Notes: generated by a model not told the origin, from the letters alone. A stretch of 64,000 bases of DNA from Alphaproteobacteria bacterium (GCA_030428565.1 JAUIDR010000007.1:18504-82503); one strand, 5' to 3'. Positions 2,298 to 60,824 are shown, numbered from the stretch's first letter. Made by a program: numbers and translations.

Positions 2298-2410
2298 TCG
2301 CGCCCTGCGCTTGATGCAGCTTCCCAAGTTTCACCAAGATCGCGGCTTAGGTTTCTTTTGATACTCATAAGCCGGGTCTTTGCGCCCGGAAAGCTGTATG
2401 GGAGAATGCT

Positions 2411-3424: not shown

Positions 3425-3552
3425 GTTGGCAATACTAGGCTGGCAAGGCTAGATCGGCCTGCTTTGCTGGCACTGTCTGACCTGAGATTGTTGCAACCAC
3501 CTTGCAAGCCTCATGCGCACGGACTTGCTCGGGGTCATTGGCGGGTAGCGGC

Positions 3553-45226: not shown

Positions 45227-46606
45227 CTATAAGTCTGTTAGCGTGCCCAGTGCGCGCTCGCTGGCAAAGGCAAGCGTTTCCGACAAGGTCGGGTGTGCGT
45301 GGACAGTCAGGGCCAGATCTTCAAGCGTCGCGCCCATCTCAATGGCCAGACAGGCTTCGGCCAAGAGTTCGCCGGCGTTTGCACCGACTAGGCTAGCGCC
45401 CAGCAGGCGGTTGCTGTCGGGGCAATAGATCAGCTTGGTGAGGCCATCGCCGCCGCCAGAGGCGAGATTGCGCCCTGAGGCGGCCCAGGGAAAGCTGGTC
45501 ACGGCGTGGGCAAGGCCTTGCGCTTTGGCTTGCTGTTCGCTCACGCCTACCCAAGCGAGTTCGGGGCTAGTATAGGCCACCGAGGGGATCAGGTTGGTAT
45601 CCAGCGCGGCAGCATGCCCGCAAGCCACTTCAGCAGCAACATGGCCTTGATGGGTAGCACGATGGGCCAGCATCGGATTGCCGGTCACATCGCCAATAGC
45701 GAAAATGCCCGGCACCGAGGTCTGGCAGCTCGCGTCAACTGCGATGATTCCGCGTTCGTCCGCTGTGATACCAGCGGCCTCAGGGGCAACTCCTTGCGCG
45801 TTGGACCGGCGGCCAACGGCCTGGATAATCGCGTCGGCTTCAAGGGTGCCGCTAAAGGCGCCCTCACAGAGCAGCGTCAGTTGTTTTTTGTTGCTCTCAA
45901 CGCGGGCTGTCTTGGTGCTGGTGTGCAGCGTGACGCCCTGGTCCTGCAAAGCGGCTGCCAGGATACCGGCGGCTTCAAGGTCCGCGCCAGGGGCGATTTG
46001 ATCGGCCAATTCGATCACGGTGACATCAGATCCCAATGCCGCATAGACCGTCGCCATTTCCAGGCCGATGATGCCGCCGCCGACAATGGCGAGGCGCTTA
46101 GGAATGCTGAGCAGCTCCAGGGCTGCTGTTGAATCCCAAATGCGATCATCTTGGGGCCAGCCTGGCAATTGGATCGGCGAGGAGCCGACGGCGATCACAG
46201 CATGCTCGAAACTCCAGGACTTGCCGTCGACGTCCAGCGTTTTGGCATCGCTAAAGCGCGCGGTGCCGCGCACCACTTGCACCTTGCGTCGCTTGGCCAG
46301 TGCCGATAGGCCGCCGGTCAGCTGCGCTACGATGCCGTCTTTCTTGCTGCGCAGGCGGTCCAGGTCGATTTTCGGCGCAGCGAAACTGAGGCCCCAGTCA
46401 CCGGCATGGCGTGCTTCGCGCAGGACTTGCGCGGCGTGCAGCAGTGCCTTTGACGGGATACAGCCCTCGTTTAGGCAGACCCCGCCCAGGCTCGCACGTG
46501 GGTCGACCAGCACGACCTTGCGGCCCAAATCTGCGGCGCGAAAGGCGCAAGCGTAGCCACCAGGCCCGGCGCCTATGACGATGAAATCGGCGTGATTATC
46601 GGCCAT
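45227..46606 (-). CDS. lpdA: dihydrolipoyl dehydrogenase (E3)
   Basis: FIVIGAGPGGY, GGVCLNEGCIPSK redox disulfide, AIGDV, HAHPTLSE. Confidence 0.92.
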   Translation of the reverse strand: MADNHADFIVIGAGPGGYACAFRAADLGRKVVLVDPRASLGGVCLNEGCIPSKALLHAAQVLREARHAGDWGLSFAAPKIDLDRLRSKKDGIVAQLTGGLSALAKRRKVQVVRGTARFSDAKTLDVDGKSWSFEHAVIAVGSSPIQLPGWPQDDRIWDSTAALELLSIPKRLAIVGGGIIGLEMATVYAALGSDVTVIELADQIAPGADLEAAGILAAALQDQGVTLHTSTKTARVESNKKQLTLLCEGAFSGTLEADAIIQAVGRRSNAQGVAPEAAGITADERGIIAVDASCQTSVPGIFAIGDVTGNPMLAHRATHQGHVAAEVACGHAAALDTNLIPSVAYTSPELAWVGVSEQQAKAQGLAHAVTSFPWAASGRNLASGGGDGLTKLIYCPDSNRLLGASLVGANAGELLAEACLAIEMGATLEDLALTVHAHPTLSETLAFASERALGTLTDL

Positions 46607-46622
46607 GTTTGCGGATCCCTTG

Positions 46623-47510
46623 TTAGATTAACATGCGGCGCGGGTCCGCCAGCAGGCCGGCAAGCTGCACCATGAAACGAGCCGCCTCGGCGCCGTTTAT
46701 GACCCGATGGTCATAGCTCAAATCCAAGGGCAGCATGGGCCGGGGTTGGAAAGCATTGCCGTCCCACACGGGCGAAATTTCGGCCCTGGTAATGCCTAAG
46801 ATCGCGACCTCGGGCGGGTTGACGATGGGGGTAAAGGCGCTGCCGCCGATGCCACCCAAATTGGTGATGGTCATAGAAGCGCCGCCCATGTCTTGCGGGC
46901 CCAGCTTGCGCTCTTGCGCGCGCGCAGCCAGGTCTGCAATTTCCTCGGCAATCTGCCACAGACCCTTTTGATCGGCGTCACGAACGACGGGCACCATGAG
47001 GCCGTGCGGGGTGTCAACGGCAATCCCAATGTGTCGGTAGTCCTTGAGCGTCAAGGTCTTACCGTCTGCAGACAGCGAGGCGTTAAAGCGCGGGAAGGCA
47101 TCCAGCGCGACCGCCAGAGCCTTAACTTGAAACGCCAAGGCCGTGAGCTTGATGCCGCGCGCTTTGGCTTCGGGCTTCAGCTCGGTTCGGAACGCCTCAA
47201 GCGCCGAGATATCCGCGCGGTCGTGGTGGGTAACCTGCGGGATAAGGGTATTGGCAGCACTCAAGTTTTGCGCGGCGACTTGGGCAAAACGGCTCATGGG
47301 CTCTTCTTGAACCGCGCCGTATTGGCTGTGGTCCACATCCCAATAGCGAGCCGCCTCGTCGCTGCTGTTTGACGTCGAAGCAGGGCTTCCCGTTTGCAGG
47401 TCGTCCGCCGTTAGCTGTGAGCGACCAAGCCGCTGAGCCAGGGCTTCCAGGTCGATACCTTGCGCGCGCGCTTGGGCGCGAACCGAAGGTGAAGCAACAA
47501 ATGTCGTCAT
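46623..47510 (-). CDS. 2-oxoacid dehydrogenase E2 acyltransferase made of a PSBD and a catalytic core only (no lipoyl domain)
   Basis: It begins directly with the E3/E1-binding domain (ASPSVRAQARAQGIDLEAL). An AceF-like core follows: FPRFNASL, IGIAVDTPHGLMVPVV, ITNLGGIGG, catalytic LSYDHRVINGAEAARF. Confidence 0.8.
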   Translation of the reverse strand: MTTFVASPSVRAQARAQGIDLEALAQRLGRSQLTADDLQTGSPASTSNSSDEAARYWDVDHSQYGAVQEEPMSRFAQVAAQNLSAANTLIPQVTHHDRADISALEAFRTELKPEAKARGIKLTALAFQVKALAVALDAFPRFNASLSADGKTLTLKDYRHIGIAVDTPHGLMVPVVRDADQKGLWQIAEEIADLAARAQERKLGPQDMGGASMTITNLGGIGGSAFTPIVNPPEVAILGITRAEISPVWDGNAFQPRPMLPLDLSYDHRVINGAEAARFMVQLAGLLADPRRMLI

Positions 47511-47522
47511 GCTCGTTTGCCC

Positions 47523-48962
47523 TTACCAGCTCGTTGAAATGTACTGGGCTTCCATGAACTCCAGCATGCCCTCGTGGCCGCCTTCGCGCCCCAAGCCCGA
47601 TTGCTTAACGCCACCAAAGGGGGCCGCAGGATCGGAGACCAGGCCACGATTGAGGCCCACCATGCCAAAGTCCAGCCGTTCGCAGACTTGAAGCCCACGC
47701 TTCATGTCTTTGGTGAATACATAGGCCACAAGCCCGTACTCGGTGTCATTGGCCTTGGCGATAATGGCTTCTTGATTGCTGAAGGTCTGGATCGCGGCCA
47801 CGGGTCCGAAGATTTCGTCTTGCAGGCACTCGGCATCGTCCGAGACATGAGACAGAACCGTGGGCGGATAATAGAAGCCAGGACCGTCGGGCAGGGTGCC
47901 GCCGACCTCGATCTTTGCGCCCTTGGCCACCGCGTCGGCGACGAATGCGGCCACCTTGTCTCTGGTATCGGCGTTGACCAGCGGTCCGACATCGACGCTG
48001 GGATCGGTTCCGTCGCCGACTTTCAGCGCGCCCATGGCCTCGGCGAGGCGACGGGTAAAGTCATCGGCGACAGCCTCATGGACGTAGATACGATTGGCAG
48101 CAGTACAGGCCTCGCCTTGATTGCGCATCTTGGCCAACATGGTGCCTTCGACCGCTTCGTCTAGGTCTGCATCGTCGAAGATGATAAGCGGCGCGTTGCC
48201 GCCCAGCTCCATTGCGGGTTTTAGCACCTGGTCGGCGGCCGACTTAAGCAACTTGCGGCCAACGCCGGTCGAGCCAGTAAAGGACACAACCCGCACCCGG
48301 GGATCGTGCATCAGATGATCGACCAGTGCGCCAGTTCTGCGCGAAGGCAGGACATTGACCAAGCCTGCGGGCACCCCGGCTTCTTCCAGCAAAGGCATGA
48401 GCGCCAGCATAGTCAAAGGGGTCTCTGACGCGGGTTTGATTATGACGCCACAGCCAGCAGCCAGCGCGGGTGCAATTTTGCGCGTACCCATGGCGGCGGG
48501 GTAGTTCCAAGGCGTCACCAAGACCGCCAAGCCTGCGGGCTTGTGGTGCACCATAATCCGTGCGCCAGAGCTAGGCGCGTGGGTCAAAAGACCGTCAGCG
48601 CGCACGGCTTCTTCGGAAAACCAACGAAAGAATTCGGCGGCATAGCTGGCTTCGCCCATGGCGTCCTTGCTGGCCTTGCCGTTTTCGAGCGTGATTAGGT
48701 GTGCAAAATCGTCCAGGCGTTCGCTCATCAGCTCCCAGGCTCGTCGCAACACCATAGAACGTTCGCGCGGGCTGCGCGCGGCCCAGTCGGCCATGGCGGC
48801 TTCGGCGGCGTCCAGGGCCAGGTCGGCGTCGGCGATCTCTGCCGAGGCGACCGACGCCAGAACCTCTTCGGTTGCCGGGTTGAGCACGTCAAAGCGTTGC
48901 TGGTCGGCGCCGTTGCGCCATGTGCCATTGATGTAAAGATCGGTGTAAATTGTGTCAGTCAT
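47523..48962 (-). CDS. NAD(P)-dependent aldehyde dehydrogenase (succinate-semialdehyde dehydrogenase-like)
   Basis: LYINGTW, VTPWNYP, FTGSTGVGR, ELGGNAP (catalytic Glu), NQGEACTAANR (catalytic Cys). I prefer the ATG at 48962 over the ORF start at 49031, which would overlap the upstream gene. Confidence 0.85.
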   Translation of the reverse strand: MTDTIYTDLYINGTWRNGADQQRFDVLNPATEEVLASVASAEIADADLALDAAEAAMADWAARSPRERSMVLRRAWELMSERLDDFAHLITLENGKASKDAMGEASYAAEFFRWFSEEAVRADGLLTHAPSSGARIMVHHKPAGLAVLVTPWNYPAAMGTRKIAPALAAGCGVIIKPASETPLTMLALMPLLEEAGVPAGLVNVLPSRRTGALVDHLMHDPRVRVVSFTGSTGVGRKLLKSAADQVLKPAMELGGNAPLIIFDDADLDEAVEGTMLAKMRNQGEACTAANRIYVHEAVADDFTRRLAEAMGALKVGDGTDPSVDVGPLVNADTRDKVAAFVADAVAKGAKIEVGGTLPDGPGFYYPPTVLSHVSDDAECLQDEIFGPVAAIQTFSNQEAIIAKANDTEYGLVAYVFTKDMKRGLQVCERLDFGMVGLNRGLVSDPAAPFGGVKQSGLGREGGHEGMLEFMEAQYISTSW

Positions 48963-48978
48963 TGGGGGCCTCTGGAGT

Positions 48979-50313
48979 TTAGAGCAGGTGGCGCAGAGGC
49001 TGTGCCAAACGGTCTGCAAAGTTGGAAACAAGGGCGACGGCTTCGGCGGGGCTGAGTTGGCCTGCCGCCGCTTCTAGGGTCAGCTCTATGCCCGTACTGG
49101 CCTGGATTAACGTCAGCGTCGGGGTGCTTTCACCGCCAAGCTGCACGCTGGTCAAGCGGCTCCAGCGCAGGTCGCGCACTAATAAATCGGGGCTGGGGGG
49201 CAAGTCTTGATCGGCGTCCTGGCAGACTGCAACTTGGCCAAGGCGACCCGTCGGCGCTTGATAGCACTGGGTCTGTCCCAAGCTTTCGACGCTGACACGG
49301 GCGGCGCGACCCAAGCTGGCAGCGGCAAAGCCTGCCAGAAGAGCGGCGCTGTCGGTTTGGCCTTGCTCGCTGGTCCAACGGGCAAAGGCATCAAAGCCTG
49401 CGTCCTCGACCGTAGCCGTAAGGCGCAAACTGGCGGGCCCAGCACTTCCGGCTGCTGTAGCGCCCTTCGCTGGCAAGCCGCGCAGCAACTCCAGGTCCGC
49501 GACGTGGTAGGGTTGGGGATGGCCAATTTCGGCCAAGCGTGCCAGATCCAAGCCTTGTTCTAACGCCAAGCGGCGTGCTTTGGGAGAGGCGAGAATGCGA
49601 CCGTGGTCGCTGACCGCAGCGAGCTTGGCGGCCTTAGGCGCCGCGGCGGCTTTGGCGGCGGCTGGCGTAGCCTTTGTGCCCGCGGCTGGTTTTGGCGCGT
49701 CGGCAGCTGGTGCGGACGCTTGAGCGCTGCGCACTAAAGGGGCATCCGGCTTGGCCTCAGAAATGATAGCAATGGTCTGGCCAACAGGCACATCTTCGCC
49801 CGCTTCGGCCAGCACAGCCGCAAGATAGCCGTCAAAGCCCGCTGGGACTTCAACCGTGCTCTTATCGGTCTCGACCTCGAACAAGATATCGTCTTGAGCA
49901 ACGGCCGCTCCCGGCTCTTGCAACCAAGCGACCAAGAGCCCCGTGTCTTGAGCCATTCCTAAGGTCGGCATGATAACGATTTGACCTTCGGGCAGGGGCG
50001 CAGCGGCGTTTGCCTCTTGGCTCGCGGCGCCATCGCTGACGGCTGCCGGAGCGGGCGCGCTGTCCGCAGCTTCTGGGCTCTCGGAGATTTTAGCGATGAC
50101 TTGGCCTACCGGTACGGCGTCACCGGCCGCCGCGCTGACGTGGGTCAGGTAACCGTCGCCAGCCGCCTCGACTTCCATCGTGGCTTTGTCGGTCTCGACC
50201 TCGAACAGCACGTCACCGGCGCTCACCGCCTCGCCCGGCTGCTTGAGCCAGGCAACGATGAGCCCCGTGTCTTGTGCCATGCCCAAGGCCGGCATGATGA
50301 CATCAAGCGGCAT
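48979..50313 (-). CDS. lipoyl-carrier E2-like protein: 2 lipoyl domains + PSBD + degenerate core-like C-terminus lacking the DHR catalytic motif
   Basis: VLFEVETDKATMEV and ILFEVETDKSTVEV lipoyl-lysine motifs. Ala/Pro-rich linkers. PSBD ILASPKARRLALEQGLDL. The C-terminus ends E2-like (AQPLRHLL), but LTLEAAAGQLSPAEA stands where LSYDHRVIDGAEA is expected. Confidence 0.75.
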   Translation of the reverse strand: MPLDVIMPALGMAQDTGLIVAWLKQPGEAVSAGDVLFEVETDKATMEVEAAGDGYLTHVSAAAGDAVPVGQVIAKISESPEAADSAPAPAAVSDGAASQEANAAAPLPEGQIVIMPTLGMAQDTGLLVAWLQEPGAAVAQDDILFEVETDKSTVEVPAGFDGYLAAVLAEAGEDVPVGQTIAIISEAKPDAPLVRSAQASAPAADAPKPAAGTKATPAAAKAAAAPKAAKLAAVSDHGRILASPKARRLALEQGLDLARLAEIGHPQPYHVADLELLRGLPAKGATAAGSAGPASLRLTATVEDAGFDAFARWTSEQGQTDSAALLAGFAAASLGRAARVSVESLGQTQCYQAPTGRLGQVAVCQDADQDLPPSPDLLVRDLRWSRLTSVQLGGESTPTLTLIQASTGIELTLEAAAGQLSPAEAVALVSNFADRLAQPLRHLL

Positions 50314-51298
50314 GGATCATCTCCCCAGACATGAGCAAGCGCGCCTTTTCGGCGACGGCTTCGGGTGTGGGGACGGTGATATCCTCCAGCGCGGGCGAGA
50401 AGGGGACCGGGACGTCCATGGCCCCCATGCGCACCACGGGCGCGTCTAGGTGATAGAAGGCTTTTTCGTTGATTCGGCCCGCAATCTCGCCGGTGATGCC
50501 GAAGTTCTGGTGGCCTTCATCGACCACAATGACGCGACTGGTTTTCTTGGCCGACCGCAACAGGGTCTCTTCGTCCAGCGGCACAATGGTGCGGGGGTCG
50601 ATGACCTCGGCGCTGATACCCTCGGCGGCCAGAATGTCGGCGGCCTTTTCGCAGACCTGAACCATAGAGGAGGTGGCAATCAGCGTGATATCTTCGCCTT
50701 CGCGCTTGATGTTGGCCTCACCGAAGGGGATCAAGAATTCCTCTTCCGGAACAGTGGCCTTGTCGTTGTACATCAGCTTGTCTTCGAAGATCACGACGGG
50801 GTTGTTGTCGCGAATGGCCGTCTTCATCAGGCCTTTGGCTTCGTAAGCAGACGAGGGCAGGGCTACTTTCAACCCCGGAATGTGCGCTACCAAGGCGTGC
50901 AGCGACTGCGAGTGCTGCGCTGCTGAACGACGGGTAGCCCCCAGGTTGGTGCGCAGGACCAACGGCACGTTCAGCTTGCCGCCCGACATGTAGTGTGTCT
51001 TGGCAGCTTGGTTGCAAAGCTGATCCATAATTAGAAAAATGAAGTCACCGAACATTAGATCGACGACGGGGCGCGCGCCGGTCATGGCTGCCCCCACGGC
51101 TAGGCCCATAAAGCCGGGCTCTGCGATGGGGGTATCGACCACGCGCGCGGTGCCGAATTCTTCGACCAGACCGCTTAGGACTTTGAAGGGGGTGCCCGCC
51201 TCGGCTACGTCCTCGCCGATGATAAAGACGCTGCTATCGCGGCGCATTTCTTCGGCCAGCGCTTCATTGACGGCCTGTGAAAGAGTGATGTTTCGCAT
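50303..51298 (-). CDS. alpha-ketoacid/acetoin dehydrogenase E1 component beta subunit
   Basis: ITLSQAVNEAL.EEM, FIIGEDV, RVVDTPIAE, HSQSL. 11-nt overlap with the downstream lipoyl protein gene. Confidence 0.9.
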   Translation of the reverse strand: MRNITLSQAVNEALAEEMRRDSSVFIIGEDVAEAGTPFKVLSGLVEEFGTARVVDTPIAEPGFMGLAVGAAMTGARPVVDLMFGDFIFLIMDQLCNQAAKTHYMSGGKLNVPLVLRTNLGATRRSAAQHSQSLHALVAHIPGLKVALPSSAYEAKGLMKTAIRDNNPVVIFEDKLMYNDKATVPEEEFLIPFGEANIKREGEDITLIATSSMVQVCEKAADILAAEGISAEVIDPRTIVPLDEETLLRSAKKTSRVIVVDEGHQNFGITGEIAGRINEKAFYHLDAPVVRMGAMDVPVPFSPALEDITVPTPEAVAEKARLLMSGEMIHAA

Positions 51299-51308
51299 AA
51301 TTTAGTCC

Positions 51309-52298
51309 TCAGGCCAGGGCGTGTTCGACGTCGGTGAACACATGCATGTCCACTTCGCTTGCATCGGGGTATTTGGCGTTCAATGCGTATTCGACAGCTT
51401 CGCTTGCATCGGCTTTGATGGCGGCATTCATGGCCTCGATTTCTTCTTCGCTGGCGATGCCTTCTTCGACCAACCAAGCGCGGAAGCGGGTGATCGGATC
51501 ACGGTTTTCGCGCCAATCTTTTTCTTCTGACTTGGAGCGATAGTACTCACGGTTGATATCGCCGACGTGGTGGCCGTGGTAGCGATAGGTCATGAGCTCG
51601 ATAAAGAAGGGGCCTTCGCCTTTGCGGCAACGCTCGACCAGTTTTTGGCTCAGATCGTTGACCGCCAGCACGTCTTGGCCGTCGACCTGGAAGGCCTCGA
51701 TACCAAAGGCTTCGGCGCGGGCGGTTATGGAACCTGCTGCGATCTCGTCGGTGCGGGTGTATTCGGAGTAGCCGTTGTTCTCACAGGCATAGATGACGGG
51801 CAGCTTCCAGAGCGCGGCCATATTCATGACTTCGTACATCAGGCCTTGGGCGGTCGCACCGTCACCGAAAAAGCAGACGGCGACATCGTCTTTGCCCAAG
51901 AGCTTGGCGGAAAAAGCTGCACCGGTCGCGATGCCCATCGAGCCGCCGACAATGGCGTTTGCGCCCAAGTTGCCGTTCGATTGATCGGCGATGTGCATAG
52001 AGCCGCCCTTGCCCCGGCAATAGCCTTCTTCTTTGCCCAGCAATTCGCAGAACATTTCTTTGAAGTCGGCACCTTTGGCCACGCAGTGACCGTGGCCGCG
52101 GTGGGTCGAGGTAATCTTGTCGCTGGTCTTCAGCGCTTCACAAATGCCCACGGCAACGGCTTCTTCGCCGGAATACATGTGCGTGAGGCCTGGCATTTTG
52201 GCCGAAAGATAGAGCTGGTTGGCGTTGTCCTCAAAGGTGCGAATGCGCACCATCTGGCGGTACATACGCAAGTAGTCGTCAGCGTTCGAGTGGGTCAT
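51309..52298 (-). CDS. thiamine diphosphate-dependent E1 component alpha subunit (AcoA-like)
   Basis: YRQMVRIRTFED, STHRGHGHCVAKG, GKGGSMHIAD, FFGDGATAQG, ENNGYS. The ATG at 52298 gives about 329 aa, the normal size for this subunit. Confidence 0.85.
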   Translation of the reverse strand: MTHSNADDYLRMYRQMVRIRTFEDNANQLYLSAKMPGLTHMYSGEEAVAVGICEALKTSDKITSTHRGHGHCVAKGADFKEMFCELLGKEEGYCRGKGGSMHIADQSNGNLGANAIVGGSMGIATGAAFSAKLLGKDDVAVCFFGDGATAQGLMYEVMNMAALWKLPVIYACENNGYSEYTRTDEIAAGSITARAEAFGIEAFQVDGQDVLAVNDLSQKLVERCRKGEGPFFIELMTYRYHGHHVGDINREYYRSKSEEKDWRENRDPITRFRAWLVEEGIASEEEIEAMNAAIKADASEAVEYALNAKYPDASEVDMHVFTDVEHALA

Positions 52299-52586
52299 GT
52301 GCAGGGCCTTAGCGATAGCTTTTAGTAGAATCTTGCGCGCGCAACCCCCGTCACCATTATCGGCGAAAGTGGGCATGGTTCGCGGCGTTATCAGCGCTTT
52401 TATGAAGTTAGGGGCGGGAAAAGGGTCACGGCATCCGCGCGCGAGAGCCGATGCTACCAGCCGCGAAAGGTGCACCCTTGTTAAGCGCACTCCATTTTGG
52501 CTGATCCTTTTGGGGCTGACCCCTTGGGGCTCCATCCCGGCCGCCCGCCCGGTCCCACAAAAGGCGCCGAGCGGACTGAGGGAGGA

Positions 52587-53885
52587 TTAGTAGCGGTTAG
52601 CGATGGGCAGCTCTTGCGCTGGGAAGAGCGAAATCACTTCACAGCCGGTATCTGTCACCACCACCTCTTCTTCGATCCGCGCCGCCGAGTATCCGTCTGC
52701 CGCAGGGCAGTAGGTCTCAAGCGCAAAGACCATGCCGGTCTGGATCTCCATGGGGTTGTCCAGGGAAACAGCGCGGCTGATGATCGGACGCTCGTGCAGC
52801 GCCAGTCCCAGGCCGTGGCCGAACTGCAGACCAAAGGCGGACAATTCGTCGGGGAAGCCGAAGTCTTGCGCCTTGGGCCACAACTTGGCGACCTGGTCGG
52901 TGGTCACGCCGGGCTTGATCGCTTGGATTGACGCATCAATCCACTCGCGCGCTTTGACGTAAGCATCGACCTGAGCTGGGGTCGATGTGCCAATGTTGAA
53001 GGTCCGGTAGTAACAGGTGCGATAGCCCTGATAGCTCTGCAAAATATCAAAGAAAGCCTGGTCGCCGGGGCGGAACAAGCGGTCAGTGAAGTTGTGCGGG
53101 TGCGGGTTACAACGCTCGCCAGAAATGGCGTTGATGGCCTCTACGTCGTCCGAACCCATCTCATAGAGCATCTTGTTAGACAGGGCGACGATCTCGTTCT
53201 CACGAACGCCCGGCTTCAGCTCTTCGTAGATCATGTGATAGACGCCATCGACCATGCTGGCCGCTTGGGTCAGAAGCTGGATTTCGTCCCAGTTCTTGAT
53301 CTCGCGTGCGGATAGCATGATTTGCTGGCCATCGACGACGTTTAGGCCCGCTTCTTTCAGCGCTTCAAACATGGCGGTTTCGGCATAGTCGACGCCGACC
53401 GGCATGCCAGCCATACCTGCGTCTTTAATCAGGCCCGCGATATCTTCGGCGTACTTCTTCATCAGACCGAAAGAGGGCGGAATAGTACCGCGCATGCCGA
53501 CCACGCCCGCATGGCAGTTTTCCGGCACCAGCCAGTCTGAATACTTGCGGTGGTGGACCGCAGCAGAGCCAAAGTCCCAGACGTGCGGGGCATCATCGCC
53601 GGTCAACAAACAGAAGCGGCACATTTTGTCCCGTTCCCATTCGCCGATCTTGGTCGCCGAAACGTAGCGGATGTTGTTGACATCAAACAGCAACAGCGAA
53701 CCAGCGTTGCTTTCCTGAAGCGCCTTGCGCGTACGCCCGAGGCGATAGCGGCGCAGGCGGTCGTGGTCGATGCGACGCTCGAAATCGACCGAGTTGTGAC
53801 CCCAAGCAGGGATACGACCTTCCCACTGCCAGTTGGGTTCAATGTCCTGGGGCGTCAGGAGGTTAGGGATGAGGGCGCGCGACAT
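52587..53885 (-). CDS. M24-fold (creatinase/prolidase-like) hydrolase with a non-canonical metal-ligand set
   Basis: Creatinase_N-like N-domain (LLLFDVNNIRY) and pita-bread C-domain (GDQAFFD, GHGLGLALHE, FALETY, RIEEEVVVT). The ATG at 53885 is preceded by aaggaga. Confidence 0.7.
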   Translation of the reverse strand: MSRALIPNLLTPQDIEPNWQWEGRIPAWGHNSVDFERRIDHDRLRRYRLGRTRKALQESNAGSLLLFDVNNIRYVSATKIGEWERDKMCRFCLLTGDDAPHVWDFGSAAVHHRKYSDWLVPENCHAGVVGMRGTIPPSFGLMKKYAEDIAGLIKDAGMAGMPVGVDYAETAMFEALKEAGLNVVDGQQIMLSAREIKNWDEIQLLTQAASMVDGVYHMIYEELKPGVRENEIVALSNKMLYEMGSDDVEAINAISGERCNPHPHNFTDRLFRPGDQAFFDILQSYQGYRTCYYRTFNIGTSTPAQVDAYVKAREWIDASIQAIKPGVTTDQVAKLWPKAQDFGFPDELSAFGLQFGHGLGLALHERPIISRAVSLDNPMEIQTGMVFALETYCPAADGYSAARIEEEVVVTDTGCEVISLFPAQELPIANRY

Positions 53886-53949
53886 GGCTTTCTCCTTCAG
53901 GCGCACTGTGGCGCGCCTGTTTGTTAAACAAATTCAAGTGATTAGTCGG

Positions 53950-54756
53950 TTACTGAATGCACCAGCCGCCGTCGATGTGCAGCATCTGGCCGGTCATGTA
54001 GTCGCTGTCCGGGCTGGCCAAGAAGGCGGCCGTACCCTTGATGTCGTCGGGATAAGAGACCCGCTTGATCACCAGCTCGTTTTCAACGATGTCGTCATAG
54101 GCTTGGCCCGCGCGCTCTTTAAAGCCGATCTCAACCAAGTCTTTGTCAAGCTGCTCCCAGAGCGGCGTAACTACAACACCAGGGGCGTAGCCGTTGACGG
54201 TAATGCCATGCTCGGCCAGGCCAACCGCGCCACAGTGGGTCAACGCCAGGCAGCCGTATTTGGATGTACAATAAACGGTGACGTCCACCAGCGGCTTGCG
54301 CGACGCGATCGAGCCCACATTGATCAATTTGTAGGGATAGTCTTGCTTGCCCTGTTTGATCATTTGGCGGGCGGTCTCCTGCATGCCCAGCCACATGGCC
54401 TTGGTGTTGACGTTCATGATCATGTCCCAGTTATCTTCATCGATATCCATGAAGAAGCGGGGCTTGTTGAGACCAGCGTTGAACAGACCAACATTGATCA
54501 TGCCGAAGGCTTCAACCGTCGCTGCGACGGCCGCGGCGTTGTCTTCGCGCTTGGTGACATCCATTTTGACCGCAATCGCCTTGCCGTTACCGCGCGCGTT
54601 GATGCGCTCTGCGACGGCTTGCGCTTCGTCCAAATCCAGATCACCCAGGCAGACGTTGGCGCCTAGCTCTGCGAAATGCTCAGCGTTGGCAGAGCCCATG
54701 CCGCGTGCGGCACCGGTGATGAGAATGTTTTTGCCTTGTAGGCGATTGGGGTCCAT
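53950..54756 (-). CDS. SDR family oxidoreductase (acetoin reductase / polyol dehydrogenase-like)
   Basis: ILITGAARGMG, NAGL, YCTSK, LASPDSDYMTGQMLHIDGG. The ATG is preceded by taggagga. Confidence 0.85.
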   Translation of the reverse strand: MDPNRLQGKNILITGAARGMGSANAEHFAELGANVCLGDLDLDEAQAVAERINARGNGKAIAVKMDVTKREDNAAAVAATVEAFGMINVGLFNAGLNKPRFFMDIDEDNWDMIMNVNTKAMWLGMQETARQMIKQGKQDYPYKLINVGSIASRKPLVDVTVYCTSKYGCLALTHCGAVGLAEHGITVNGYAPGVVVTPLWEQLDKDLVEIGFKERAGQAYDDIVENELVIKRVSYPDDIKGTAAFLASPDSDYMTGQMLHIDGGWCIQ

Positions 54757-54773: not shown

Positions 54774-56693
54774 TTACCGAAACCCGTTATTCATCAGCGC
54801 ATCGGCCCGGTCTTGGGCTCTGCGCAGTGCGTCGCGCGGCGGGGTTACACCGCGCAGCATGTCGTGAAACTCCTCGCCGCAGATCTGGATGATGTCGCAG
54901 ATCTCAGGGACAGGGGGGCGAGGCCAGAATTGCAGTTCGTCACGCCAAGACATGGCGTCAACATCTTCAAAGATGGGCGAGAGGCGGCGCACTTCGGGGT
55001 CGATTCCCACCGAGTAGCGAGCGTTGGTGCGGCTGCCATTCTGGACGTACATTTTTTGGGCCTGTGGCGAGGTGAAGACCAGCAGCGCTTCCACGGCTGC
55101 GGGCACGCGTTCGGCCGGCAAATTGGCAGGAATGCCCATCATGTAACCCCCAACCGGCGCGATCGGCGTGCCGCCAGGTGCGGTGGGGTGGGGCAGGTAG
55201 CCGGTGGAATTGGCAGCCGGGCTGGAGGCATCCAGCTCAAAGTAAGGCGCCAACAGGGTGTAGCCATAGGCCATCGGTACGGCGCCAGCCGCATAGGGGC
55301 GCACGCGCTCGTACCAGGACATGGACAAGATGTCGGGCGGCGAGTAACGCAGCAGCTCCATCAGGAATTCAGCCGCTTCTAGGCCGGCTGGCGTGTCGAT
55401 TGTGGGGTGATAGTTCCCGGTTGCCAGGTTGTCGGTCTCAAAGCCGCCGGCGATTTTGGGCAGATTCAAGACCGACTGGCCGAAATCAGCCAGGGCCATT
55501 AAGAATGTGTGACCTAGCGCTGTGCCGCGGGCGGCGTTCCAGGCAATGCCATAGCGCCCGGCGCTGGGCTTGTGGAAATGGCGGGCGGCGTTCAACAGTT
55601 CGTCGGTCGTGCGCGGCGGCTCAAGCCCGGCGTCAGCGAACAGATCTTTTCGGTAGAACAACAGCTCGGGCGTGGTCTGCGCAGGCACGCCATAGGGGCG
55701 CCCGCCCCAGTAGGTCGCCTTCCAGCCCGCGGCGTGAAAATCGGCTGAGTCCAAGCGGGCGATGTCCATCGCCTCATCCAAGGGCATGAGTACGCCGGTC
55801 TCGGCGAATCCGCCGACCCATGGCAAATCGACCGCTACAATATCATAGCGACTTGACTTGCGTTCGGCGTTCTTGACGGCTTCTTCACGCAGACGGTCGA
55901 TAGAAAAGGCGCGTTGGTGGATTTGGGTGCCAATGACTTGTTCAAACTGGCGCTTCAGGTTGTCCATGACCATGAAGGTGGGATCGCCGTGGACCAAGAC
56001 GCGAATCCCGCCTGAGATCTTGAGCGGCTCGCCCAATACCTGCAACGGCGGGATGGAGCGCGCTTCGAGGTATGAGCCGCCAAAGAAGTAGTCGTTGCTC
56101 TCGCTTTGCGCTAAGGCGCCGCCGAATTGGTTGGCGGCCAGGCGCTGTATGCGGCTTGAAAGCTGCATCCATTGATTGAGCAGTTTGGGGCTGGGGTGAA
56201 GCGAGAAGCTGCGACCGCTCTTGGTGCGGGGGCGCTGCTCGACCAGGCCGGCCTCAACCATCTCTTTCAAGCGGCGGGTGGCGGTGGCGTAGGGCACGTG
56301 ACTCGCACCAATCAGCGAGGTTGGCGTAATGACCTTGGCCTCCAAGTGGCCGCGCATCAGGTGCAAAAACATGCGGAAAAATGGATTCGGCGCAGAGATC
56401 TCAAGAATATCGTCCAGTTCGTCGCCAAAATCCTCCAGAAAGGCCAAGATCTGGAGCATCTCGGTCTTCGCTTGCGGCGAAACCGGCATCTTGCGATGAT
56501 GATGTGGATCCAAAGCGTTCATACGAGGCGCGCGATCTCTTTCCTGATCTCTGCTGGGGCGATTGGCGGCACCTGATGAAATGTCCAAATTGGGGGTTTT
56601 ATCGAGAGACATAACAGGCGTTGTCCTAAATTGTTCAAAATGACATCGAGAGTGTACGGGAAACATATCCAGTTTGGATGTCAAATCATCCAA
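54774..56693 (-). CDS. winged-HTH (MarR-like) domain fused to a family-1 solute-binding-protein domain; putative cytoplasmic regulator (start uncertain)
   Basis: N-terminal ITPTSLIGASHVPYATATRRLKEMVEAGLVEQRP. C-terminal about 430 aa with SBP_bac_1-type motifs (YDIVAVDLPWVGGFAETGVLMPLD, GRPYGVPAQTTPELLFYRKDLFADAGLEPPRTTDEL). No signal peptide. Confidence 0.7.
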   Translation of the reverse strand: MDDLTSKLDMFPVHSRCHFEQFRTTPVMSLDKTPNLDISSGAANRPSRDQERDRAPRMNALDPHHHRKMPVSPQAKTEMLQILAFLEDFGDELDDILEISAPNPFFRMFLHLMRGHLEAKVITPTSLIGASHVPYATATRRLKEMVEAGLVEQRPRTKSGRSFSLHPSPKLLNQWMQLSSRIQRLAANQFGGALAQSESNDYFFGGSYLEARSIPPLQVLGEPLKISGGIRVLVHGDPTFMVMDNLKRQFEQVIGTQIHQRAFSIDRLREEAVKNAERKSSRYDIVAVDLPWVGGFAETGVLMPLDEAMDIARLDSADFHAAGWKATYWGGRPYGVPAQTTPELLFYRKDLFADAGLEPPRTTDELLNAARHFHKPSAGRYGIAWNAARGTALGHTFLMALADFGQSVLNLPKIAGGFETDNLATGNYHPTIDTPAGLEAAEFLMELLRYSPPDILSMSWYERVRPYAAGAVPMAYGYTLLAPYFELDASSPAANSTGYLPHPTAPGGTPIAPVGGYMMGIPANLPAERVPAAVEALLVFTSPQAQKMYVQNGSRTNARYSVGIDPEVRRLSPIFEDVDAMSWRDELQFWPRPPVPEICDIIQICGEEFHDMLRGVTPPRDALRRAQDRADALMNNGFR

Positions 56694-56868: not shown

Positions 56869-57822
56869 ATGACCCGTTTTACCCTTGCTGCTACAACCGC
56901 CGTTGCGGCTTTTGCCATTGCTGGTGCAGCCACTGCTGGTAGCTACAAAATCGGCATCACCCAGAACAACGTGGGCGTCGACAGTTATCAGACTACTTAC
57001 GAAAAAGCCTTTATCGCAGCTTCTGATGCGAACGCCGACGTTGAAGCGGTTGTTCTGGATGCTGGCGGCGACGTTGCGCGTCAGATTGCGCAAATGGAAG
57101 ACCTGATTCAGCAAGAAGTTGACGCCATCATTATCTGGCCGACCAACGGCGAAGCGGTTATCCCCGCGGTTCGTAAGGCCCACAAGGCTGGCATTCCGGT
57201 GATCGTAACCAACTCGAACATCGCAGAAGCAGGCTTCCCTTTCGTTAAGTCTTTCTCTGGCCCCGATAACATCACCCAAGGTTCACGCTCTGCTGAGATC
57301 ATGTGTGACAAGTTCAAGGCCATGGGCATTGAGAACGAAGCGCAGGTCGTGCACATCACTGGTCAGCCCGGCTACACCACCGCGATCGAGCGTGCGAAAG
57401 GCTTTGAAGACCGTCTGCCTGAAGTTTGCCCGAACGTGACTGTTCTGGACACTCAGCCCGGCGACTGGAACCGCGAAAAGTCTCAGAAAGTTATGGAAGC
57501 TTTCTTGGTCAAGTATGACGACATCGACGGCGTCTACGCTGGCGACGACAACATGGGCGTTGGCGCTCTGAACGCTGCTAAAGCGGCTGGCCGCGAAGGC
57601 ATCATCTTCGTCGGTGCGACCAACTTTGCGGTTGGCTACGAAGCCATGGAGCGTGGCGAATACTGGGGTTCAATCTACCAGTCTCCAGTTGACGATGCAG
57701 AAGCCGCATTGAAGACCGCGCTGGACGTGTTGAACGGCATGGACGTGCCCTTCCTGAACTACTTCGACACTCCGAAGATCACTCAGGACAACCAGTCTGA
57801 CTTCACTAAGCCGGTATTCTAA
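56869..57822 (+). CDS. sugar ABC transporter substrate-binding protein (ribose-binding-protein-like)
   Basis: Signal peptide MTRFTLAATTAVAAFAIAGAATAG. KIGITQNN, IPVIVTNS, VYAGDDNMGVGAL. Strong RBS gggagaggag. Confidence 0.85.
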   Translation: MTRFTLAATTAVAAFAIAGAATAGSYKIGITQNNVGVDSYQTTYEKAFIAASDANADVEAVVLDAGGDVARQIAQMEDLIQQEVDAIIIWPTNGEAVIPAVRKAHKAGIPVIVTNSNIAEAGFPFVKSFSGPDNITQGSRSAEIMCDKFKAMGIENEAQVVHITGQPGYTTAIERAKGFEDRLPEVCPNVTVLDTQPGDWNREKSQKVMEAFLVKYDDIDGVYAGDDNMGVGALNAAKAAGREGIIFVGATNFAVGYEAMERGEYWGSIYQSPVDDAEAALKTALDVLNGMDVPFLNYFDTPKITQDNQSDFTKPVF

Positions 57823-57834
57823 TCTGGCATTGCC

Positions 57835-57872
57835 GCCGAGCGCTGGGGAACCGGCGCTCGGCTTTCTTTTCT
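57835..57872 (+). terminator. rho-independent terminator/attenuator after the SBP gene
   Basis: Perfect 9-bp stem GCCGAGCGC / GCGCTCGGC with a 10-nt loop, followed by TTTCTTTTCTT. Confidence 0.65.
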
Positions 57873-57909
57873 TAAAATCAAACAATAATAATAAATTCTG
57901 GAGGACACC

Positions 57910-58722
57910 GTGGCAGATATACCACTGGGGCGTGTCGCTGGTCGATCGTGCATTGTCACAGGCGCGGCGCGCGGTATCGGTCGGGCGATCGGTGAAGCCT
58001 TGTTGGATGAAGGCGCTGATGTCTGTTTTGCCGACCTGAACGGCGATGATGCAGCGCGCGTGGCGGCCCTAAACGAAGAGCGTATGGCTGGTAAGGGCGG
58101 CGCCATTACTTATGCCGCTGTCGATGTGCGCGAGCGCGAACAAGTGCAAGCCATGATTGCTCACACAGTCGAGGCATTCGGCAAGCTGGACGTCAAGTTC
58201 AACAATGCCGGGGTCAATAAGCCGATGAATTTCCTGGATGTGACCGAAGACAACTGGCACTTCATTATGGATATCAACGGCCTGGGCTGCATGATCGGAA
58301 TGCAAGAGGCGGCCGCTCAAATGATCAAGCAAGGCACCGGCGGTAAGATCATCAATACGGCCTCGATCGCCAGCCGACAGGGCTTTGATAATGTAGCGCC
58401 ATACTGCGCCAGCAAGTGGGCCGTGGTCTCCTTGACCCAATCCGCCGCGCGCGATCTGGCCAAGCACGACATCACGGTGACCGGGTTTGCGCCGGGCGTG
58501 GTAGCAACTGAAATGTGGGAAGAGGTCGATCGCGACCTGATGGAGATCGGCGCCGCCGAGCGTCCGGGGCAGGCTATGCAAGACTTCTCTGCCGACATCC
58601 TAAAAGGGCGCGTTGCCTTGCCGGGCGACATTACCGGCACAACGACTTTTTTGGCCTCGCGAGATAGCGACTACATGACCGGCCAAATTGTTATGATAGA
58701 TGGCGGCATGACCCTGGTCTAA
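57910..58722 (+). CDS. SDR family oxidoreductase (acetoin reductase / polyol dehydrogenase-like), paralogue of 53950-54756
   Basis: CIVTGAARGIG, NNAGV, YCASK, LASRDSDYMTGQIVMIDGG. The GTG start is preceded by ggagga. Confidence 0.85.
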   Translation: MADIPLGRVAGRSCIVTGAARGIGRAIGEALLDEGADVCFADLNGDDAARVAALNEERMAGKGGAITYAAVDVREREQVQAMIAHTVEAFGKLDVKFNNAGVNKPMNFLDVTEDNWHFIMDINGLGCMIGMQEAAAQMIKQGTGGKIINTASIASRQGFDNVAPYCASKWAVVSLTQSAARDLAKHDITVTGFAPGVVATEMWEEVDRDLMEIGAAERPGQAMQDFSADILKGRVALPGDITGTTTFLASRDSDYMTGQIVMIDGGMTLV

Positions 58723-58834
58723 CCAGGGTCTGTGACCGTCAAGCGATGAATGGTTGTGGTCAGTCAGTACGGCGCTAAGGGCGTGCCTGCTGGCAGGCTG
58801 CAGCGTTAAAATTTTCGGGAGCTGGGAGGAGACT

Positions 58835-59809
58835 ATGCCCCAAATCACAAAGGCAAGCATTGGACGCTTTGTGGCCCGACAAGGGATCTTGATCGCATTC
58901 GTCTTGTTTATGGTTGGCTTTACCTTTGCCAATCAGCGCTTTTTGGCCCCGGAAAACGTGATGGGCGTTATCCGATCTTCGGCCATTTTGGGCGTTATGG
59001 CGCTGGGCGTGACCTTCGTGGTGATCAGTGGCAATCTGGACCTCTCTGTGGGCTCAATGATGTCCTTTTCCACCATCGTGGTACTGGATCTGCACGACAA
59101 GCTTGGCCCGACGTTGGCCATTCCAGCCATGTTCGCCATGACCTTGTGCCTGGGGGCCATCATCGGCTTTTTGGTCGGCTACCTCAAACTGAATTCCTTG
59201 ATCGTCACTTTGGGTATGCTATCCGCCATTCACGGCCTGACGCTCACCTATTCGGGCGGCAAGAACATGGATATCGTCGACAAAGAGGGCACTTGGTTTA
59301 GCGTTTTCGGGCAGGGCGATGCTTTGGGCGTGCCGGTGCCCATCTTGATGTTCTTGGGTCTGGCAGCACTGCTGGGCATCGTTTTGGCTAAGACCCCGTT
59401 CGGGCGCAAGATTTATGCCGTCGGTGGCAACGGCGTGGCGGCCACCTTCTCTGGCATTCGCCGCCCGCGCGTCATCCTCAGCTGCTATCTCATTTCGGCT
59501 TTTTGTGTTGCAACCGCGGGCCTACTGCAAGCCAGCCGCTCGTTGGGTTCGCAAAACACCGTCGGCCAAGGCTTGGAGCTGGAAGTTTTGGCGGCGGTCA
59601 TCCTGGGCGGCGCGTCTTTGTTGGGCGGCTCTGGCACCATTTTTAAGACCGTCATCGGCGTCCTGATCTTGGGCTTTATCCAAAACGGCCTGCTGTTGGT
59701 TGGCCTGCAATTCTATGCCCAGTACGTCGTGACCTGGGTCATCATCATTCTTGCGGTCTGGCTGGACATAGCAGCCAAGCGCGGCAAGCTTCTGTCCCCC
59801 ATCGCCTAG
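58835..59809 (+). CDS. sugar ABC transporter permease
   Basis: LDLSVGS, YAVGGNGVAATFSGI, GGASLLGGSGT. The ATG at 58835 is preceded by gggagga. Confidence 0.85.
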   Translation: MPQITKASIGRFVARQGILIAFVLFMVGFTFANQRFLAPENVMGVIRSSAILGVMALGVTFVVISGNLDLSVGSMMSFSTIVVLDLHDKLGPTLAIPAMFAMTLCLGAIIGFLVGYLKLNSLIVTLGMLSAIHGLTLTYSGGKNMDIVDKEGTWFSVFGQGDALGVPVPILMFLGLAALLGIVLAKTPFGRKIYAVGGNGVAATFSGIRRPRVILSCYLISAFCVATAGLLQASRSLGSQNTVGQGLELEVLAAVILGGASLLGGSGTIFKTVIGVLILGFIQNGLLLVGLQFYAQYVVTWVIIILAVWLDIAAKRGKLLSPIA

Positions 59810-59822
59810 AGGAGCTGAGGAC

Positions 59823-60824
59823 ATGTCAAGCGGTATGCTGAGCACTTTTCTAAAGCGCGGCGCGATTTGGGGCTTCATCCTGGTCGAGCTGGCCTTCTTT
59901 TCCATCGCCGGAGAGCAAATGTCTCTGTCGGACAAAGCTTTCATGGACTTGGATAACATGCTGTTGTTGTTCAAACAGTCGGCCCCCATCGGGATTATCG
60001 CCGTCGGCATGACCATCATTATGATCAACGGCAATATTGATTTGTCAGTGGGCGCGACCTTTGCCTTGGCGGCCATCGTGCTGTTGGACAGCATGACCTG
60101 GCCAATTTTCTCGGGCTTGGGTGATTGGGTCATCCCGGTTGCTTGGTTGCTGGCACTGCTGACCGGTGTCATCCTGGGGGCGCTAAACGGGTTCATCGTC
60201 TGGAAAACCGGGATCGACGCCTTCATTGTGACGCTGGGCTCTATGCTGGGCTTTCGTGGCCTGGTCTTCATGTACAATGGCGAAAACCCTACCTCGCACC
60301 TCAATTGGACACTCGTGGATTTTGCTGAAGCGCAATGGCTGGGGCTGCATACGGCCACTTGGTTCCTGCTCGGGGCGACGGCGATCATCTGGTACATTAT
60401 GAACCGCACCGTGCATGGTCGAAACGCCTATGCGATTGGCAACAACCGCGAAGCTGCCGTCAATGCGGGCATTCGCGTCGGCCCGCACATGATGATTAAT
60501 TTCATGATCATCGGGTTTTTGGCGGCGCTGTCTGCGGTGGTCTTTTATTCCGAAAGCGGCTCGGTCAACCCCAACGATGGCGAGCTGTATGAGCTGTGGG
60601 TCATCACGGCGGTCGTCCTTGGCGGCACCAAGCTGACGGGCGGTTCGGGCTCGATCATCTCCACTTTCGGCGGCGTAATTGCGATCCAGTTGCTGCGCAA
60701 AGGCTTGGGCCACATCGGCGCGGACACCGAGACGGTTAACCTAGTCATCGGAATGATCTTGATTGCTGTACTGTTCTTGGATCGACAGCTCAACATCAAA
60801 GGCAAAGAGGAGTTGCGCGTATGA
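59823..60824 (+). CDS. sugar ABC transporter permease (second membrane subunit)
   Basis: IDLSVGAT, YAIGNNREAAVNAGI, GGTKLTGGSGS. Confidence 0.85.
   Translation: MSSGMLSTFLKRGAIWGFILVELAFFSIAGEQMSLSDKAFMDLDNMLLLFKQSAPIGIIAVGMTIIMINGNIDLSVGATFALAAIVLLDSMTWPIFSGLGDWVIPVAWLLALLTGVILGALNGFIVWKTGIDAFIVTLGSMLGFRGLVFMYNGENPTSHLNWTLVDFAEAQWLGLHTATWFLLGATAIIWYIMNRTVHGRNAYAIGNNREAAVNAGIRVGPHMMINFMIIGFLAALSAVVFYSESGSVNPNDGELYELWVITAVVLGGTKLTGGSGSIISTFGGVIAIQLLRKGLGHIGADTETVNLVIGMILIAVLFLDRQLNIKGKEELRV

Follow-up and report, generated by a model that had tools for sequence, protein, structure and literature searches.

LipX, a lipoyl-bearing pseudo-E2, is paired with a lipoyl-less acyltransferase core in a dehydrogenase cassette of marine bacteria

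The 2-oxoacid and acetoin dehydrogenase complexes are the textbook case of swinging-arm catalysis, in which the arm is normally tethered to the core that it serves. In the canonical acyltransferase component (E2), one or several lipoyl domains, the peripheral-subunit-binding domain (PSBD) and the catalytic domain are carried on one polypeptide, and the eukaryotic E2 that partners the E3-binding protein (E3BP, or protein X) likewise retains its own lipoyl domains. Among the closest described systems are the fungal E3BP, whose core-binding domain derives in reduced form from the E2 catalytic fold and whose gene is regarded as eukaryotic (PMC10156792), and actinobacterial OdhA, where a lipoyl-less acyltransferase is served in trans (PMC10415282). 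Here we describe an operon on a 64,000-nt stretch of DNA from an alphaproteobacterium (GCA_030428565.1, JAUIDR010000007.1:18504-82503; hereafter the window), in which E2 is split over two genes: one encodes a 444-aa lipoyl protein, here named LipX, and the other a 295-aa protein, here called the core. This split-E2 arrangement has not been described before for bacteria and is a variant on a known type of enzyme complex.

An initial annotation of the window had read, on the minus strand, the order E1alpha, E1beta, a 444-aa protein, an aldehyde dehydrogenase (ALDH), a 295-aa protein and E3, and the list of open reading frames (ORFs) agrees with Pfam and NCBIfam searches on exactly this order (Table 1). 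The motifs that it had singled out, EVETDKATMEV, EVETDKSTVEV, LTLEAAAGQLS, AQPLRHLL and SYDHRVINGAEAARF, were each found in the window proteins. The tight spacing that it had described is also there, with 10 nt between E1alpha and E1beta, -11 nt between E1beta and LipX, where E1beta reads 11 nt into LipX before it stops, 16 nt between LipX and ALDH, 12 nt between ALDH and core, and 16 nt between core and E3. A purine-rich Shine-Dalgarno (SD)-like run precedes each gene at the operon junctions when ALDH is counted from ATG 48962; this start is probably the true one, rather than TTG 49031, since the SD-like run lies there and a start at TTG 49031 would overlap LipX.

A genome scan with the LipX C-terminal pattern, using one genome per GTDB species, found the pattern in 101 species, from which 80 loci were retrieved and the window proteins mapped onto them by tblastn. 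Downstream DNA was sufficient for a core call in 77 loci, all from distinct species; 73 loci were scored for E3. In 77 of 77 loci LipX is followed by a core that has no lipoyl domain, and no lipoyl-domain match was detected within 700 nt upstream of any core in the surveyed loci. ALDH and E3 are less constant: ALDH stands between LipX and core in 58/77 loci, while the E3 gene comes after the core in 20/73. In the other 19 of the 77 loci LipX and core are directly adjacent, a group that includes all Marinobacter and Roseibium/Labrenzia together with some Yoonia, Loktanella and Jannaschia. Median identity between loci was 89.5% for an M24 protein encoded upstream of E1alpha, 87% for E1alpha, 76% for E3, 74% for the core, 55% for ALDH and 52% for the LipX C-terminal domain (C-domain), the last being the fastest-evolving part of the cassette. 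The nearest relative of the window locus is 96-98% identical in a short-chain dehydrogenase/reductase (SDR), M24 and E1alpha, and 55-59% identical in ALDH and the LipX C-domain. We considered the window ALDH as a lineage-specific replacement and rejected this, as identity between the ALDHs is about 55% throughout the loci.

These counts bear on the suspicion that an error of sequencing, assembly or annotation has divided one canonical E2 gene. One database protein of this kind does exist: P0332 (545 aa, in the library of representatives) runs in the LipX frame through a garbled second lipoyl region into the ALDH N-terminus, a chimera that is most likely a frameshift or assembly artefact and not a natural fusion. 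Against such an origin of the split, the same architecture recurs in 77/77 independent genomes, complete chromosomes and plasmids included, both proteins have their own start, SD sequence and complete termini, and a whole ALDH gene intervenes in most loci. Because the survey shows the split in every one of the 77 loci, we exclude an artefact, whose probability we regard as vanishingly small. We are confident of the split, of the pseudo-core described below and of their conservation; the arrangement is widespread and was unannotated before.

The 295-aa protein had been read as a PSBD and a complete AceF-like core without a lipoyl domain, and both Pfam and NCBIfam return this composition. Its PF00198 match spans aa 67-294, that is, profile positions 4-231 of 232, and among NCBIfam models it scores best with TIGR01348 (PDHac_trf_long; 356 bits, positions 285-586 of 587). 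The PSBD (aa 5-40) gives a weak E3_binding match over aa 5-24 and keeps the canonical Gly-Arg turn. Across 22 homologues H268 and N272 of the DHRVING motif do not vary and position 216 holds only Thr or Ser, so that the sequence predicts a competent acyltransferase. A lipoyl domain belonging to this protein was found in none of the 77 loci, and the best 120 core homologues are uniformly 291-301 aa long. E2p chains of the TIGR01348 type normally partner a homodimeric E1; here this AceF-type "long" core stands beside a heterotetrameric alpha/beta E1, which gives the operon a mosaic look.

For LipX, Pfam and NCBIfam profiles and structure prediction agree with the proposed succession of two lipoyl domains, a PSBD and a C-terminal domain. 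In 32 LipX homologues, E40, T41, D42 and K43 of the first lipoyl domain (pLDDT >90) and E148, T149, D150 and K151 of the second are invariant. The PSBD-like domain forms three short helices in the full-length model (pLDDT 93-95); its invariant residues include L241, A242, S243, P244, K245, R247, R248, Q267 and P268, and it carries a family-specific motif, GHPQP(Y/F)HV.

The C-terminal region was the part whose relation to E2 cores could be doubted, and the relation is carried by the predicted structure, not by sequence profiles. No Pfam or NCBIfam family matched LipX aa 275-444, PF00198 gave zero matches to 25 members of the LipX family even at E <= 10, and phmmer of the C-domain against the PDB matched no chain, E3BP included. 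An hhalign comparison of the C-domain profile with the core profile gave E = 0.05-0.1; its register, reliable over the last ~65 residues only, places TLE(C/A)AxxQL opposite LSYDHRVIN and the PLRHLL tail opposite PRRMLI. AlphaFold2 modelled the C-domain alone with pLDDT 91.9 and pTM 0.86 as six strands and four helices, and the full-length model is consistent with this. When the model was used as Foldseek query against the PDB, the best 50 matches were all folds of the chloramphenicol acetyltransferase (CAT) superfamily: E2 cores of the pyruvate (PDH), 2-oxoglutarate (OGDH) and branched-chain 2-oxoacid (BCKDH) dehydrogenases (6ct0, 1c4t, 7b9k, 3l60), human E3BP (6h60), fungal E2/PX entries, chloramphenicol acetyltransferases and condensation domains of nonribosomal peptide synthetases. 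E was ~1e-4 and the probability 1.00, with TM scores of 0.47-0.66 by the query and of 0.4-0.5 by those targets that are E2 catalytic domains; these values agree with a CAT fold reduced from ~230 to ~150 residues. The full-length model likewise matched E2 or CAT folds. In the model, and by comparison with the Foldseek matches, the strand carrying the catalytic Ser/Thr is probably missing. With the predicted structure as the decisive evidence, we assign the C-domain as a pseudo-core of E2/CAT fold.

An exhaustive profile search with the C-domain over 1.84 billion representative proteins returned 302 clusters at E <= 1e-3, of which 196 reached E <= 1e-10 (clusters at 50% identity). In the best 150 matches the protein ends with the C-domain, except for a few fragments and the chimeric P0332. 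The proteins fall into two length classes, of ~420-470 aa with two lipoyl domains and of ~320-360 aa with one, many of the divergent members having a single lipoyl domain. LipX homologues come mostly from Rhodobacterales, but also from Marinobacter and from genera of Rhizobiales/Hyphomicrobiales type (Roseibium, Hongsoonwoonella), and are named in databases "biotin/lipoyl-containing protein" or "pyruvate dehydrogenase", PGAP orthologues bearing only the former name.

The catalytic positions were counted in the 117 family representatives that carry the C-terminal tail, with the alignment anchored on that tail. As the initial annotation had claimed, the 444-aa protein has no catalytic His/Asp. 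The window protein has Ala opposite the His of DHR, and across the family this position is A, P, E or G, with His in 1/117 representatives, where no DHR surrounds it; in place of the Asp of DHR stands A, T, S or P. The tail itself is near-invariant (P-x-R-x-L-L, PLRHLL in the window), with Pro(-6) and Arg(-4) in 117/117, Leu(-5) in 109, Arg(-10) in 110 and Ala(-12) in 109, and it resembles the core's own end, DPRRMLI. A motif of the P-x-R-x-L-L type ends E2 chains generally, and this segment takes part in inter-subunit packing. Since LipX is without catalytic residues and the core keeps them, we read LipX as a pseudo-E2 and the 295-aa protein as the competent acyltransferase.

The same residues could be taken to indicate that the C-domain has acquired a new catalytic or ligand-binding role, such as hydrolysing a thioester or transferring acyl groups in another way. 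Charged residues in R380-D381-L382-R383 and at E414, R435, R441 and H442 are invariant, and in proteobacterial AcoC the catalytic domain has been swapped for an alpha/beta hydrolase fold. We nevertheless find such a role improbable, given that the C-domain is ~70 residues shorter than the catalytic domain, that the catalytic His is absent and the Ser/Thr-bearing strand probably so, and that a competent acyltransferase is always encoded alongside.

The operon belongs to a wider cassette (Table 1), whose conserved order is a putative regulator with a winged helix-turn-helix (wHTH) and an SBP_bac_1 domain, an SDR, a DddP-like M24 protein, E1alpha, E1beta, LipX, ALDH where present, core and, where present, E3. 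The M24 protein is the most conserved gene product of the cassette and is absent from the Marinobacter versions; it aligns end to end with solved structures of the DMSP lyase DddP (4s01, 4rzy, 4b28) and scores 112 bits against the NCBIfam DddP model, whose cut-off is 600. The SDR next to it has 3wye, 1geg and 4e6p as closest solved structures and falls below the cut-off of both models given in Table 1; an SDR goes with the E1/LipX/core set in every context sampled. In most Rhodobacterales loci the regulator ORF keeps its place upstream of the SDR; it combines a MarR-like with an SBP_bac_1 domain and is probably the ligand-sensing regulator of the cassette. PGAP names its orthologue "extracellular solute-binding protein". 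A divergent arm encodes a solute-binding protein (SBP) of the CUT2 sugar/polyol type, a second butanediol-dehydrogenase-like SDR, two permeases, an ATPase, an oxidoreductase like tartronate-semialdehyde reductase and a ThuA-like protein. The SBP was found in 61 loci (median identity 89%), its solved relatives being generic CUT2 sugar/polyol binders. NCBIfam searches gave no equivalog for the SBP, SDR, oxidoreductase, ThuA-like or M24 proteins.

Table 1. Features of the cassette in the window (positions counted from the first letter of the window; TPP, thiamine pyrophosphate; SSADH, succinate-semialdehyde dehydrogenase)
Feature	Position	Strand	Evidence
E1alpha (TPP-dependent, heterotetrameric alpha/beta type)	51309..52298	-	PF00676 E1_dh 4e-84
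E1beta	50303..51298	-	PF02779 Transket_pyr + PF02780 Transketolase_C
LipX, lipoyl-bearing non-catalytic E2 half, 444 aa	48979..50313	-	Biotin_lipoyl 1.7e-34 (two stretches)
LipX lipoyl domain 1, aa 1-78, lipoyl-Lys K43	50080..50313	-	PF00364
LipX lipoyl domain 2, aa 109-186, lipoyl-Lys K151	49756..49989	-	second PF00364 stretch
LipX PSBD-like domain, aa 238-281	49471..49602	-	weak PF02817 E3_binding match aa 240-260
LipX pseudo-core, reduced CAT/E2 fold (predicted), aa 293-444	48982..49437	-	AlphaFold2 model + Foldseek
ALDH, SSADH-like, between the E2 halves	47523..48962	-	PF00171 Aldedh 7e-159
Lipoyl-less E2 core, 295 aa, AceF-like	46623..47510	-	PF00198 2-oxoacid_dh 3.9e-80
E3, dihydrolipoyl dehydrogenase, 459 aa	45227..46606	-	TIGR01350 lipoamide_DH 494 bits
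DddP-like M24 (pita-bread fold) protein	52587..53906	-	PF00557 1.3e-35
SDR, 2,3-butanediol dehydrogenase/acetoin reductase-like	53950..54756	-	TIGR02415 207 bits, PRK07067 206 bits
Putative regulator, MarR-like wHTH + SBP_bac_1 (start uncertain)	54774..56693	-	PF01547 1.5e-25, weak MarR_2
Divergent arm, seven gene products listed in the text	56869..63953	+	Pfam, NCBIfam

Inside this otherwise tightly packed operon, an untranslated spacer of 288 nt (52299-52586) separates the M24 gene from E1alpha. An Rfam search of the spacer gave no match, and it could hold an internal promoter; on plasmid pGal_E78 the same junction measures 74 nt. Beyond the E3 end of the operon, an alpha/beta-hydrolase ORF of 147 aa (43302-43745, plus strand) covers profile positions 1-110 of 217 only and is probably truncated or a pseudogene, and a second ORF (43669-44022), overlapping and downstream of it, has no Pfam match.

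The cassette is also found on plasmids. On the conjugative pGal_E78 of Phaeobacter gallaeciensis (NC_023141.1, 2693-21021; locus L086) it forms a self-contained block of 16 genes, bounded as in the window by divergent-arm genes and flanked by a RelE/ParE toxin-antitoxin system, a type ISP restriction enzyme and plasmid backbone genes; these toxin-antitoxin and restriction genes make the cassette look horizontally mobile. The block has its own lpdA and no other lipoyl protein, so that there LipX must be the lipoyl carrier. The whole cassette is present on 17 other PLSDB plasmids, conjugative or non-mobilizable, from Phaeobacter, Tritonibacter, Marinovum and Pacificitalea.

The surroundings of the E2 pair vary. 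Marinobacter has a tripartite ATP-independent periplasmic (TRAP) transporter and a 417-aa protein in place of M24 and the regulator, and keeps the SDR, E1alpha-beta, LipX and core; we considered the 417-aa protein as a divergent M24 and rejected this, since the two share no similarity. In one divergent locus (L089), GntR, LipX and core (the pair at 1249-3462, minus strand) face a TRAP transporter, two SDRs and an E1 whose alpha and beta parts are fused in one 737-aa chain, and LipX thus stays adjacent to the core although E1 sits in a divergent operon. Three other divergent single-lipoyl versions keep the cassette, and a lipoyl-less core follows LipX in all 4 divergent single-lipoyl contexts with enough DNA. 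These variants define a constant module of SDR(s), E1, LipX and lipoyl-less core. In one genome each, a Dak1/Dak2 kinase (dihydroxyacetone/erythrulose type; L087, 12223-13839, minus strand) and rhamnose-catabolism-like genes (an AP_endonuc_2 isomerase, an aldolase_II-SDR fusion and DeoR; L091, 14752-18201, minus strand) adjoin the cassette; such neighbours may hint at a small polyol or deoxy-sugar as substrate.

We consider it rather probable that the cassette encodes a dedicated lipoamide-dependent complex in which E2 function is divided over the obligatorily paired LipX and core and which carries out an acetoin-type cleavage. For trans-acylation, physical assembly, PSBD specificities and substrate class we infer the following scheme. 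E1alpha-beta would reductively acylate the lipoyl-lysines K43 and K151 of LipX, the acyl-lipoyl arm would enter, in trans, the active site of the core, where CoA would take over the acyl group, and E3, cassette-encoded in the window but presumably a borrowed housekeeping enzyme in most genomes, would reoxidise the arm. The pseudo-core would hold LipX beside the active core, most likely through the PLRHLL tail and interfaces of the CAT fold; we propose it as the anchor because the E2-type tail is near-invariant and because the adjacency of LipX and core persists. The two PSBDs differ, and they may divide the recruitment of E1 and E3 between LipX and core, which is a reasonable idea.

The competing view of this assembly is that LipX is a free lipoyl carrier outside the core. 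Its C-domain would then homo-oligomerise, for example as trimers, or bind E1, and its arms would reach a separate core oligomer by diffusion or transient contact, as between OdhA and AceF. CAT-fold domains can trimerise alone, E1beta and LipX are translationally coupled, and the C-domain is much less conserved than the core (52% vs 74%). There is also the case of OdhA, which is served by lipoyl domains of a different oligomer (PMC10415282). A free carrier would, however, sit uneasily with an E2-type tail as the most conserved feature of the LipX C-domain, with an adjacency to the core that outlasts the move of E1 to another operon, and with a PSBD on both proteins, as would be expected if one particle were common to both. 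On balance we judge a free carrier unlikely, and retain the co-assembled pair as the preferred reading.

As to the reaction, a diol or polyol would be imported and oxidised by the two butanediol-dehydrogenase-like SDRs, E1 would split the resulting alpha-hydroxyketone into acyl-lipoyl and an aldehyde, and ALDH, where present, would oxidise the aldehyde. An acetoin-type cleavage of an alpha-hydroxyketone is most likely the physiological reaction, judging from the profile comparisons and the gene context, because both SDRs are closest to acetoin reductase/butanediol dehydrogenase (207 and 256 bits against TIGR02415, cut-off 304), because E1alpha misses the PDH equivalog cut-off (355.9 bits against TIGR03182, PDH_E1_alph_y, cut-off 393.85), because the transporter is of the sugar/polyol type and because ALDH is embedded in 75% of loci. 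Of the other enzymes, E1beta exceeds the cut-off of the subfamily model NF006667 (392.8 bits vs 321) and E3 that of TIGR01350 (494 bits vs 408.8), while ALDH stays below that of TIGR01780 (540 bits).

The same genes can be read as an ordinary dehydrogenase of a pyruvate-like 2-oxoacid, with the SDRs making the 2-oxoacid from a 2-hydroxyacid, ALDH as a passenger and the split E2 as the sole oddity. The highest scores of E1alpha and E1beta are with PDH models, and human PDH E1alpha (2ozl, 2.5e-65) is the solved structure nearest to E1alpha. TRAP transporters, which are typical for carboxylates, replace the ATP-binding cassette (ABC) system in Marinobacter and L089, and ALDH is poorly conserved besides being absent from 19/77 loci. 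This would leave unexplained the E1alpha score under the equivalog cut-off, two SDRs that are nearest to acetoin reductase/butanediol dehydrogenase and not to 2-hydroxyacid dehydrogenases, a CUT2-type ABC transporter for sugars or polyols, and an ALDH inserted within the E2 gene pair in three quarters of the loci. A 2-oxoacid substrate is therefore the less likely of the two, though somewhat less remote than a free lipoyl carrier.

Several observations weigh against our scheme as a whole. The closeness of E1alpha to genuine pyruvate dehydrogenases makes a 2-oxoacid substrate possible, and ALDH is missing in a quarter of the loci. The rapid evolution of the C-domain would fit a loose scaffold and also a domain with another role, and its homology to E2 is not significant at the sequence level by hhalign or PF00198. 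The scheme also leaves the DddP-like, ThuA-like and oxidoreductase genes without a part.

The pair constitutes a natural system, present in at least 100 marine bacterial species, in which arms and active sites are on different polypeptides and the arm-bearer keeps a vestigial core domain. If LipX and core do co-assemble, LipX would be a bacterial and independently evolved analogue of the eukaryotic E3BP (PMC10156792), the pair would offer a two-gene model for active-site coupling versus covalent tethering and for core stoichiometry, and the C-domain would define a domain family of 302 clusters missed by Pfam and NCBIfam. The cassette, its near-invariant DddP paralogue included, marks an uncharacterised catabolic pathway, apparently mobile by horizontal transfer, in marine bacteria of ecological importance.

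Compared with the canonical E2, the window differs in that lipoyl domains are found only on LipX and 2-oxoacid_dh only on the core (77/77 loci). The 295-aa protein has the His and Asn of DHRxx(D/N)G and the Ser/Thr of the neighbouring strand, whereas LipX, despite its CAT/E2-like predicted fold, lacks the DHRxx(D/N)G residues. With respect to PDH of the alpha/beta E1 type, the cassette E1alpha misses the equivalog threshold and E1beta passes NF006667. Lipoyl domains have been relocated elsewhere, onto the N-terminus of alphaproteobacterial PDH E1beta and onto the Neisseria E3 P64K, and LipX has matches to both: its aa 1-102 align with positions 1-103 of NF008854, an E1beta model, and the lipoyl domain of P64K (1gjx) is among its structural matches in Foldseek. 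In these systems E2 keeps its own lipoyl domains and the extra domain is on an active enzyme; they are precedents for relocation and not for complete separation, and LipX instead places the lipoyl domains on a degenerate E2 paralogue.

The acetoin dehydrogenase AcoA/AcoB/AcoC/AcoL resembles the cassette in its heterotetramer-type E1alpha-beta, lipoyl protein and E3 and in the linkage to SDRs of butanediol dehydrogenase/acetoin reductase type, and its aldehyde co-product and unorthodox E2 in proteobacteria can be likened to the cassette, where the acetoin substrate is putative. It differs in that E2 is here split over two genes and that the LipX C-domain is a reduced CAT fold and not the C-terminal domain of AcoC; LipX scores 151.5 bits against the acetoin E2 model NF011457 (cut-off 307), with its lipoyl part aa 5-85 only. 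The cassette additionally has an ABC transporter of sugar type, a DddP-like gene and a ThuA-like gene, and we know of no described aco cluster with these.

The initial annotation knew of no characterised bacterial complex with this partition, and in a literature search neither this operon nor any naturally split E2 of bacteria was found described; OdhA, however, is a partial precedent (PMC10415282). The trans-lipoyl principle alone is common to OdhA/KGD-AceF and to LipX/core. In OdhA the E2o domain is fused to E1o, while the core stands alone as a 295-aa protein and has a PSBD of its own; the lipoyl donor of OdhA, AceF, is the active E2 of another complex, while LipX is a non-catalytic donor; and the OdhA system has neither a pseudo-core subunit nor a dedicated two-gene E2.

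In architecture LipX matches E3BP, with lipoyl domains followed by a PSBD and a non-catalytic, E2-derived C-terminal domain. The PSBD of E3BP is specific for E3, whereas that of LipX may bind E1 instead. The active core has no lipoyl domain here, unlike the eukaryotic E2 partner of E3BP. As LipX is bacterial and has no specific sequence relationship to E3BP, the similarity appears convergent; on the same grounds, E3BP being eukaryotic and its E2 keeping lipoyl domains, LipX is not a member of E3BP. A more far-reaching reading, tentative and somewhat short of an even chance, would make LipX the convergent bacterial counterpart of E3BP, with all arms on a non-catalytic subunit whose pseudo-core would plug into an AceF-like core or substitute within it, with PSBDs that separate E1 from E3 recruitment, and with the complex as the central step of an undescribed, plasmid-mobile pathway by which marine Roseobacters and Marinobacter would break down a polyol-derived acyloin and which would also use the DddP-like enzyme.

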